A stretch of DNA of 40,572 bases from Escherichia coli (GTDB taxonomy: Bacteria; Pseudomonadota; Gammaproteobacteria; Enterobacterales; Enterobacteriaceae), in assembly GCF_003334355.1 (NCBI RefSeq), contig NZ_QOWP01000032.1. The stretch is one strand, 5' to 3'. The number at the start of each line of letters is the position of its first letter. Within the stretch, counting starts at the first letter, position 1. Position numbers and translations under genes: made by a program. Below, one piece after another: positions 9,329 to 11,415 of the stretch. The notes below the pieces were generated by a model. That model made no database searches, was not told the DNA's origin, and saw only the letters and a program-made list of their open reading frames with translations.

Positions 9329-10252
9329 ATGAAAATACTTCTAACTGGTTCAACTGGTATGGTTGGTAAGAATATACTAGAACATGCTAGTGCAAAAAAA
9401 TATAATATACTAACACCGACTAGCTCTGATTTGAATTTATTAGATAAAGATGAAATAGAAAAATTTATGCTGATCAACATGCCAGACTGTATTATACATG
9501 CAGCGGGATTAGTTGGGGGCATTCATGCAAATATAAGCAGGCCGTTTGATTTTCTGGAAAAAAATTTGCAGATGGGTTTAAATTTAGTTTCCGCCGCAAA
9601 AAAACTAGGTATCAAGAAAGTGCTTAACTTGGGTAGTTCATGCATGTACCCCAAAAATTTTGAAGAGGCTATTCCTGAGAAAGCTCTCTTAACTGGTGAG
9701 TTAGAAGAAACTAATGAGGGATATGCTATTGCGAAAATTGCTGTAGCAAAAGCATGCGAATATATATCAAGAGAAAACTCTAATTATTTTTATAAAACAA
9801 TTATCCCATGTAATTTATATGGGAAATATGATAAATTTGATGATAACTCGTCACATATGATTCCGGCAGTTATAAAAAAAATCCATCATGCGAAAATTAA
9901 TAATGTCCCAGAGATCGAAATTTGGGGGGATGGTAATTCGCGCCGTGAATTTATGTATGCAGAAGATTTAGCTGATCTTATTTTTTATGTTATTCCTAAA
10001 ATAGAATTCATGCCTAATATGATAAATGTTGGTTTAGGTTACGATTATTCAATTAATGACTATTATAAGATAATTGCAGAAGAAATTGGTTATACGGGGA
10101 AATTTTCTCATGATTTAACAAAACCAACAGGAATGAAACGAAAGTTAGTAGACATTTCATTGCTAAATAAAATTGGCTGGTCAAGTCACTTTGAACTCAG
10201 AGATGGCATCAGAAAGACCTATACTTATTACTTGGAGAATCAAAATAAATGA
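9329..10252 (+). CDS. NAD(P)-dependent epimerase/reductase, probable GDP-L-colitose synthase (ColC-like; wbdJ position in O111 nomenclature)
   Basis: 307-aa ORF with GSTGMVGKN Rossmann motif and YAIAK catalytic motif; lies immediately upstream of the ColD-like gene. Confidence 0.6.
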   Translation: MKILLTGSTGMVGKNILEHASAKKYNILTPTSSDLNLLDKDEIEKFMLINMPDCIIHAAGLVGGIHANISRPFDFLEKNLQMGLNLVSAAKKLGIKKVLNLGSSCMYPKNFEEAIPEKALLTGELEETNEGYAIAKIAVAKACEYISRENSNYFYKTIIPCNLYGKYDKFDDNSSHMIPAVIKKIHHAKINNVPEIEIWGDGNSRREFMYAEDLADLIFYVIPKIEFMPNMINVGLGYDYSINDYYKIIAEEIGYTGKFSHDLTKPTGMKRKLVDISLLNKIGWSSHFELRDGIRKTYTYYLENQNK

Positions 10253-11415
10253 TTACATACCCACTTGCTAGTAATACTTGGGATGAACATGAGTATGCAG
10301 CAATACAGTCAGTGATTGACTCAAAAATGTTTACCATGGGTAAAAAGGTTGAGTTGTATGAGAAGAATTTTGCTGATTTGTTTGGTAGCAAATATGCTGT
10401 AATGGTTAGCTCTGGTTCTACAGCTAATCTGTTAATGATTGCTGCTCTTTTCTTCACTCATAAACCAAAACTAAAAAGAGGTGATGAAATAATAGTACCT
10501 GCCGTATCATGGTCTACGACATATTATCCACTTCAACAATATGGTTTAAAGGTAAAGTTTGTAGATATCAATAAAGAAACTCTGAATATCGATATCGATA
10601 GTTTAAAAAATGCTATTTCAGATAAAACTAAAGCAATATTGGCGGTTAATTTATTAGGTAATCCTAACGATTTTTCAAAAATCAATGAGTTAATAAAAAA
10701 TAGAGATATTCTATTACTAGAAGATAACTGCGAGTCGATGGGCGCGGTCTTTCAAAATAAGCAGGCAGGCACATTCGGAGTTATGGGTACCTTTAGTTCT
10801 TTTTACTCTCATCATATAGCTACAATGGAAGGGGGCTGCGTAGTTACTGATGATGAAGAGCTGTATCATGTATTGTTGTGCCTTCGAGCTCATGGTTGGA
10901 CAAGAAATTTACCAAAAGAGAATATGGTTACAGGCACTAAGAGTGATGATATTTTCGAAGAGTCGTTTAAGTTTGTTTTACCAGGATACAATGTTCGTCC
11001 ACTTGAAATGAGTGGTGCTATTGGGATAGAACAACTTAAAAAATTACCAGGTTTTATATCTACCAGACGTTCCAATGCACAATATTTTGTAGACAAATTT
11101 AAAGATCATCCATTCCTTGATATACAAAAAGAAGTTGGTGAAAGTAGCTGGTTTGGTTTTTCTTTCGTTATAAAGGAAGATGCTGCTATTGAAAGGAAAA
11201 ATTTAATAAGTAAGTTGCTCGCAGCAGGTATTGAATGTAGACCAATTGTTACTGGAAACTTTCTCAAAAATGAACGAGTACTTAGTTATTTTGACTACTC
11301 TGTGCATGACACTGTAGTAAATGCGGAATATATAGATAAAAATGGTTTTTTTGTCGGAAACCATCAGATACCGCTATTAACTGAAATAGATTATCTACGA
11401 AATATATTAAAATGA
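10249..11415 (+). CDS. colD: PLP-dependent DegT/DnrJ/EryC1-family enzyme, probable GDP-4-keto-6-deoxy-D-mannose 3-dehydratase (ColD-like)
   Basis: 388-aa ORF of the aspartate-aminotransferase fold (SSGSTANLLMIAALFF...); same length and context as ColD of colitose pathways. Confidence 0.7.
   Translation: MITYPLASNTWDEHEYAAIQSVIDSKMFTMGKKVELYEKNFADLFGSKYAVMVSSGSTANLLMIAALFFTHKPKLKRGDEIIVPAVSWSTTYYPLQQYGLKVKFVDINKETLNIDIDSLKNAISDKTKAILAVNLLGNPNDFSKINELIKNRDILLLEDNCESMGAVFQNKQAGTFGVMGTFSSFYSHHIATMEGGCVVTDDEELYHVLLCLRAHGWTRNLPKENMVTGTKSDDIFEESFKFVLPGYNVRPLEMSGAIGIEQLKKLPGFISTRRSNAQYFVDKFKDHPFLDIQKEVGESSWFGFSFVIKEDAAIERKNLISKLLAAGIECRPIVTGNFLKNERVLSYFDYSVHDTVVNAEYIDKNGFFVGNHQIPLLTEIDYLRNILK

Follow-up and report, generated by a model that had tools for sequence, protein, structure and literature searches.

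The route by which Gmd, ColD and ColC synthesize GDP-L-colitose is biochemically well established and backed by crystal structures. The enzymes with which the pathway was elucidated are ColD and ColC of Yersinia pseudotuberculosis (also named colA/colB; work of Alam, Beyer and Liu from 2004, cited by PMC7685785 and PMC5399914). In Escherichia coli, crystal structures are available for ColD of O55:H7 (PDB 2GMS, 2GMU, 2R0T, 3B8X and 3GR9), and the corresponding genes of O111 are wbdJ/wbdK, which are shared with Salmonella enterica O35. The O111 repeating unit (O unit) carries two colitose (Col) residues on glucose (Glc) in a structure with galactose (Gal) and N-acetylglucosamine (GlcNAc), Col(a1-3)[Col(a1-6)]Glc(a1-4)Gal(a1-3)GlcNAc (PMC6436433), and cloned O111 genes including wbdJ-wbdM have been used to make the O111 antigen in Salmonella (PMC11705740). 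Here we describe a pair of genes at positions 9329-11415 of a 40,572-nucleotide stretch of E. coli DNA (NCBI RefSeq assembly GCF_003334355.1, contig NZ_QOWP01000032.1; the whole stretch is referred to below as the window), which encode a 307-amino-acid (aa) short-chain dehydrogenase/reductase (SDR) and a 388-aa protein of the DegT family. We conclude with high confidence that the pair is colC/colD (wbdJ/wbdK) of an E. coli O-antigen operon and that, together with manB, manC and gmd, it serves to make GDP-L-colitose.

The colC and colD genes and their orthologues

Both open reading frames (ORFs) are intact, with colC at 9329-10252 (+, 307 aa, ATG) and colD at 10249-11415 (+, 388 aa, ATG), and the colD ATG overlaps the colC TGA as ATGA (4 bp), an arrangement that suggests translational coupling. 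They are preceded on the same strand by gmd, a Nudix hydrolase gene, manC and manB. A preliminary description of the window had placed a 388-aa DegT-family gene immediately after a 307-aa SDR gene and downstream of gmd-manC-manB; both genes were found where it had put them and the order was borne out, although it had omitted the Nudix gene (5985-6434). The pair itself is already known: its members are alleles very close to the O111 colitose genes, ColC being 97% identical to WbdJ and ColD 95% identical to WbdK. The same gene order is found in O111, namely gmd, wbdI, manC, manB, colC, colD, wzx, wzy, a GT2 glycosyltransferase (GT) gene and a further GT gene. From gmd to the last GT gene, the O111 and window sequences share 85% nucleotide identity overall; however, a comparison in 400-bp segments gave 92-99% identity for the manB-colC-colD block (about 8000-11200) and 74-88% for the flanks (7997-11196 compared with 4797-7996 and 11197-15932). 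This pattern suggests either a mosaic with a recently shared or exchanged sugar-synthesis block or a stronger constraint on those genes.

The downstream gene, colD (wbdK-type), is predicted to encode a 3-dehydratase acting on GDP-4-keto-6-deoxy-D-mannose and dependent on pyridoxamine or pyridoxal 5'-phosphate (PMP/PLP). Its product aligns with E. coli O55 ColD (PDB 2GMS) over residues 1-388 without a gap (711 bits, E = 2e-213, 79% identity), and the O55:H7 protein has the same length of 388 aa and the same S187-H188. The window protein carries S187-H188-H189, within SHHIATMEGG, and when it was aligned with the engineered ColD variants H188N (3B8X), H188K (2R0T) and S187N/H188K (3GR9), it differed from them at precisely those columns; 3GR9, for example, has N-K at columns 187-188, where the window protein has S-H. 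ArnB of E. coli K-12, which is a genuine sugar aminotransferase, has its lysine in the column of H188. Replacement of this lysine by histidine is a hallmark of sugar 3-dehydratases (PMC8987622), and Ser187 is the second residue required to turn ColD into an aminotransferase (bioRxiv 10.1101/2021.09.04.459008). The active-site histidine was the residue that the preliminary description had proposed to check, with the canonical PLP-binding lysine as the sign of an aminotransferase; the comparison with 2GMS, its mutants and ArnB returned His188, preceded by Ser187, in the lysine column. S187-H188 at the PLP-lysine position thus identifies the 388-aa protein as a predicted GDP-4-keto-6-deoxy-D-mannose 3-dehydratase, not a perosamine synthase, that is, as ColD, with a predicted C-3 deoxygenation of GDP-4-keto-6-deoxymannose.

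The upstream gene, colC (wbdJ-type), is predicted from identity, profile score and gene context to encode GDP-L-colitose synthase, an NAD(P)H-dependent C-5 epimerase/C-4 ketoreductase of the Fcl-like extended SDR type. In addition to its near identity with WbdJ, the 307-aa protein shares 67% identity with the O55 homologue, 59% with Y. pseudotuberculosis P0104 and 39% with E. coli Fcl. It has a GSTGMVG glycine motif at residues 7-13, and when it was aligned with E. coli Fcl and three ColC-type proteins, no variation was seen at S103, C105, Y132, K136 or H176. The ColC-ColD pair is a conserved two-gene module: when four SDR homologues with 59-69% identity were located in Sulfurimonas, Rhizobium, Campylobacter coli and Citrobacter, each was followed directly by a DegT gene encoding 387-394 aa (4/4), the SHH motif was the same in all four DegT partners, and in three of the four loci (Sulfurimonas, Rhizobium and Campylobacter coli) the pair lay directly 3' of gmd. 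The 307-aa protein is accordingly grouped with the ColC-type proteins rather than with Fcl, and its predicted activity is that of a C-5 epimerase/C-4 reductase on GDP-4-keto-3,6-dideoxymannose.

The other two described systems resemble the window in their enzymes and differ from it in their gene organization. In O55:H7 the pair has the same ColC-then-ColD order, and the identities to the window are 79% for ColD, 67% for ColC and 85% for the first GT; however, the O55:H7 col genes are placed apart from the main cluster, on the downstream side of gnd, and the wzx, wzy and remaining GTs of O55:H7 are unrelated to those of the window. Y. pseudotuberculosis uses the same two-enzyme route from GDP-4-keto-6-deoxymannose that we read for the window, and its ColC-type protein P0104, possibly the one that was assayed, is 59% identical to the window ColC over the full length and has the same score with the Fcl model, whereas the organization of the Yersinia cluster differs from that of the window.

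On the chemistry described for the orthologues, ManB and ManC would convert mannose phosphate to GDP-mannose, which Gmd would oxidize and dehydrate to GDP-4-keto-6-deoxy-D-mannose, the substrate of ColD. The PMP of ColD would then form a Schiff base at the C-4 keto group, with His188 as the catalytic base that takes the proton while the C-3 hydroxyl leaves; hydrolysis of the enamine would give GDP-4-keto-3,6-dideoxy-D-mannose and ammonia, and glutamate would regenerate PMP (the Schiff base, the histidine base and the regeneration by glutamate are summarized in PMC8987622). ColD would need neither an iron-sulfur cluster nor a partner reductase, and among the 12 genes of the operon we found no CDP-glucose genes (rfbF/rfbG), no E3-type reductase gene and no ferredoxin-type genes. 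ColC would complete the synthesis of GDP-L-colitose by epimerization at C-5 and NAD(P)H-dependent reduction at C-4 (Alam et al. 2004, cited by PMC7685785). As in O111, colitose would finally be attached by a glycosyltransferase of the cluster, as a terminal residue on a side branch of the O unit; we infer the side branch for this O type because colitose branches from glucose in the O111 structure.

Possible display of colitose and the first glycosyltransferase

Several points weigh against this reading or against parts of it. The RefSeq names of the two proteins are generic ('NAD-dependent epimerase/dehydratase family protein' and 'DegT/DnrJ/EryC1/StrS family aminotransferase'), no ColC- or ColD-specific NCBIfam model was returned for either protein, and the family-model evidence is negative only, consisting of scores under the Fcl, RfbH and aminotransferase cut-offs. 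ColC and Fcl have all checked catalytic residues in common and no diagnostic residue separates them, so that the ColC call is drawn from orthology, from the profile score and from the gene context. This type of cluster is known here only from its genes. The downstream GTs share no more than 73-83% identity with their O111 counterparts and the first GT is of a different type, which leaves the placement of colitose in the polymer uncertain. Finally, the first GT gene carries a frameshift, which makes the display of the O antigen by this strain uncertain.

This gene (3661-4778, +), which encodes a GT4 protein of the O55 first-GT type, is split into ORFs at 3661-4317 (218 aa) and 4308-4778 (156 aa) by a 1-bp deletion in a poly-A run near 4300-4305. 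The intact 380-aa protein of strain EA13 is 85% identical to the O55 first GT and 26% identical to O111 WbdH. The run is A6 in the window and A7 in EA13, PSS-12, E5 and GPEC1352, four strains with the same cluster, as well as in O55. In APEC E956 the run is A9 and the gene is annotated as frameshifted; this assembly is probably error-prone, given that indels are also present in its colC and colD. The gene also contains an in-frame (AAAGAC)n Lys-Asp repeat at 4219-4258, with 6 copies in the window and 8, 9, 12 or 17 in other strains, EA13 having 12. The A6 run could be a real inactivating or phase-variable mutation, or it could be an assembly error, and the poly-A run and the (AAAGAC)n repeat might switch O-antigen expression on and off.

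If the A6 run is real, GDP-colitose could be made yet not displayed. The strongest competitor to a displayed colitose antigen therefore accepts the identification of colC/colD and holds that the pair is silent, the frameshifted first GT blocking O-unit assembly and leaving a rough or semi-rough strain that displays no colitose side branch. The difference between A6 here and A7 in the four strains and O55, with the resulting split of the GT4 gene, speaks for it. However, assemblies often misstate the length of homopolymers, the one further variant found (A9) comes from the APEC E956 assembly with its indels in colC and colD, and colC, colD and all other operon genes are intact here. We regard a silent cluster as unlikely, though as an outcome that deserves to be taken seriously.

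Alternative reactions for the two enzymes

The identification of the SDR as ColC has to be weighed against that of an ordinary GDP-L-fucose synthase (Fcl), in which case the cluster would make fucose alone or alongside colitose. The best solved-structure matches of the 307-aa protein are GDP-fucose synthases (254 bits, E = 2e-74), every checked Fcl catalytic residue is kept, and for many database homologues at the level of about 60% identity the source gives the name GDP-L-fucose synthase. Fcl (GMER), encoded in the colanic acid cluster, indeed has the same fold, cofactor motif and catalytic Ser/Cys/Tyr/Lys/His as the window ColC; however, the identity of 39% is far below the 97%, 67% and 59% shared with ColC-type proteins, and the window protein is without an 8-residue insertion. 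In addition, it scored 318 bits with the NCBIfam Fcl equivalog NF047922, below the curated cut-off of 500 bits, and six ColC-type proteins likewise stayed below it (292-316), whereas E. coli colanic-acid Fcl, used as a control, scored 551. The SDR gene is also translationally coupled to colD, the pairing is kept in the four distant taxa, and the O111 O unit is without fucose (PMC6436433). Taken together, an Fcl is very improbable, and the preference of the preliminary description for ColC over a GDP-fucose branch agrees with the grouping of the SDR by identity, Fcl-model score and gene context. Unlike Fcl, the window ColC would act on the 3-deoxy product of ColD. The distant ColC-like SDRs of Sulfurimonas, Rhizobium and Campylobacter coli are likewise named 'GDP-L-fucose synthase', and that of Citrobacter 'GDP-L-fucose synthase family protein'; this naming is probably a widespread mis-annotation of colitose-type pathways.

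For the 388-aa protein, the corresponding proposal is a C-4 aminotransferase of the GDP-perosamine synthase type, so that the cluster would make a 4-amino-4,6-dideoxy sugar. The protein is a member of the DegT/DnrJ/EryC1 family and bears an aminotransferase name in RefSeq, perosamine synthetase structures match it at about 1e-29, and Per uses the same substrate as ColD (bioRxiv 10.1101/2021.09.04.459008). Nevertheless, the proposal is already refuted by His188: the residues at the PLP-lysine column are Ser187-His188, exactly as in wild-type ColD, and ColD does not transaminate its substrate unless S187N and H188K are both introduced (bioRxiv 10.1101/2021.09.04.459008). The match to ColD reaches 711 bits compared with 107 for perosamine synthetase, the protein is far under the NCBIfam cut-offs of all aminotransferase equivalogs, and an N-acyltransferase gene is absent from the cluster. 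The chance that a perosamine-type enzyme is encoded here is therefore negligible, and the choice of ColD over a GDP-perosamine branch in the preliminary description stands. The practical value of identifying the protein as ColD lies in annotation: the RefSeq aminotransferase name points to the wrong reaction.

Scarcely any probability attaches to the remaining proposal, that the DegT protein is an E1/RfbH CDP-hexose 3-dehydrase or a ColD-like GDP-heptose 3-dehydratase leading to abequose, tyvelose, paratose or a 3,6-dideoxyheptose, for although E1 structures come next after ColD among the PDB matches (174 bits), the highest-scoring NCBIfam model is that of RfbH (263 bits) and ColD-like enzymes are cited for Campylobacter 3,6-dideoxyheptose pathways (PMC10440746), the 263 bits are below the RfbH/E1 cut-off of 423, the protein is 79% identical to the crystallized GDP-hexose enzyme, and the cluster has manB, manC and gmd but is without rfbF/rfbG, an E3-type reductase or heptose-nucleotide genes.

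O-type and setting of the cluster

With the pair taken as colC/colD, little new biology attaches to the enzymes, and the modestly new part lies outside 9329-11415, in an uncharacterized O111/O55 mosaic cluster that probably carries colitose. Nine complete E. coli genomes, of pig, poultry and human origin, contain the 2,087-bp colC-colD segment at 99-100% identity, and a further 60 E. coli genomes contain it at 90-95%; those listed among the latter, at 94.8%, include named O111 strains. The clusters of GPEC1352 and GPEC1354 are 98.4-100% identical to the window over the parts compared; both strains have been typed Onovel12:H4 (PMC13248626), and the Onovel12 type has been reported from broiler farms (PMC11044539). 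We considered whether this ECTyper 'Onovel12' is the OgN12 of Iguchi and rejected the equation: OgN12 carries rmlBDAC (PMC4873512), and its wzy PCR primer had no match in the window even when three mismatches were allowed.

Assignment of the cluster to O111 was also considered and rejected. Whereas ColC and ColD are near-identical to their O111 counterparts, the O-unit flippase gene wzx (11455-12720, +), whose identical EA13 gene is annotated 'lipopolysaccharide biosynthesis protein', encodes a product only 81.5% identical to O111 Wzx; the O-antigen polymerase gene wzy (12710-13762, +) encodes a product 72% identical to O111 Wzy over 350 aa; and the first GT, at 26-28%, is unrelated to WbdH and of O55 type. 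The two downstream GTs are a GT2 protein of the O111 WbdL type (13740-14633, +), 83% identical to its O111 counterpart, and a GT4-fold protein of the O111 WbdM type (14630-15754, +), 73.5% identical to the last O111 GT. The latter we take to be a candidate colitosyltransferase, following the assignment reportedly made by Stevenson et al. 2008.

Upstream of galF, the window has a gnu-like SDR gene (1165-2160, +) for a predicted GlcNAc-PP-undecaprenol 4-epimerase, which is 93% identical to an O55:H7 protein (RefSeq N-acetyl-alpha-D-glucosaminyl-diphospho-undecaprenol 4-epimerase), and no NCBIfam Gnu model matched this SDR. By contrast, the two O111 genomes examined have insertion sequence (IS) elements upstream of galF and no gnu-like gene annotated there. 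The gnu-like gene and the O55-type first GT together suggest an O unit started on N-acetylgalactosamine (GalNAc). The O unit of Y. pseudotuberculosis O:10 is reported to stand in this relation to that of O111, being similar but GalNAc-started (PMC8533242). When the database was searched with the intact first GT, the matches included the O55 type (80%) and a Salmonella protein (61%), with no Yersinia protein among the 120 matches listed; we infer the GalNAc start, to which this search gave no added support. We tentatively propose, at somewhat less than even chances, that the cluster encodes a third E. coli colitose-type O antigen, chemically uncharacterized and designated 'Onovel12' by in-silico typing only, an O111/O55 mosaic for which a GalNAc-started Col2-Glc-Gal-GalNAc unit is predicted. 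The cluster occurs in poultry, pig and human E. coli and probably displays strongly immunogenic colitose; it may cross-react with O111 or O55 reagents, which is relevant to serotyping and to O-antigen vaccines.

Situated between galF and gnd, the standard position of E. coli O-antigen clusters, the cluster forms a low-GC stretch of about 12 kb (28-39% GC, with about 50% on either side), and ugd, wzzB and the his operon lie 3' of gnd. The interval from galF to the first O-antigen gene holds a JUMPstart element (3528-3566, +; Rfam RF01707, 53.6 bits compared with a gathering score of 35, E = 1e-9), which is predicted to mark one long RfaH-dependent operon that includes colC and colD. The genes for the precursor steps each have an O111 counterpart. 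gmd (4798-5916, +) scored 585 bits with TIGR01472 (cut-off 415) and its protein is 94% identical to O111 Gmd; the wbdI-type gene for a 149-aa Nudix GDP-sugar (GDP-mannose mannosyl) hydrolase (5985-6434, +) scored 186 bits with NF011963 (cut-off 146; 78% identity to O111 WbdI); manC (6468-7913, +), for mannose-1-phosphate guanylyltransferase/mannose-6-phosphate isomerase, scored 762 bits with TIGR01479 (cut-off 373; 89% identity to O111 ManC). The phosphomannomutase gene manB (7922-9292, +) scored 791 bits with NF011943, slightly below the cut-off of 801, and its product is 94% identical to O111 RfbK; its start is given as in the identical RefSeq gene of EA13, which begins at the equivalent of 7922, whereas the ORF lister began at a GTG at 7910.

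Inside the operon, a scan for promoters and terminators returned a site count no higher than in shuffled sequence. Between gmd and the Nudix gene, a perfect hairpin at 5943-5969 has an 11-bp stem followed by a T-rich tail and is identical whichever strand is read; a possible role is that of an internal attenuator through which RfaH-modified polymerase reads.

At its start, the window carries the right end of an IS1 element (1-77, ending AAGTTGGAGTCATTACC), which abuts a 5'-truncated wcaM (147-1016), indicating that the colanic acid cluster is disrupted; the IS1/wcaM junction is likewise annotated in strain EA13. On the other side of the O-antigen cluster, between ugd and wzzB, there is an intact gene for a 334-aa NAD-dependent epimerase (18763-19767, -). 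The epimerase gene of this interval is a pseudogene with an internal stop in both O111 genomes examined, and a similar epimerase gene occupies the same place at the Citrobacter locus with the colC homologue. The histidine operon leader (28284-28407, -; 131.6 bits) and the small RNA STnc240 (31146-31220, +; 68.2 bits) belong to the expected chromosomal context.

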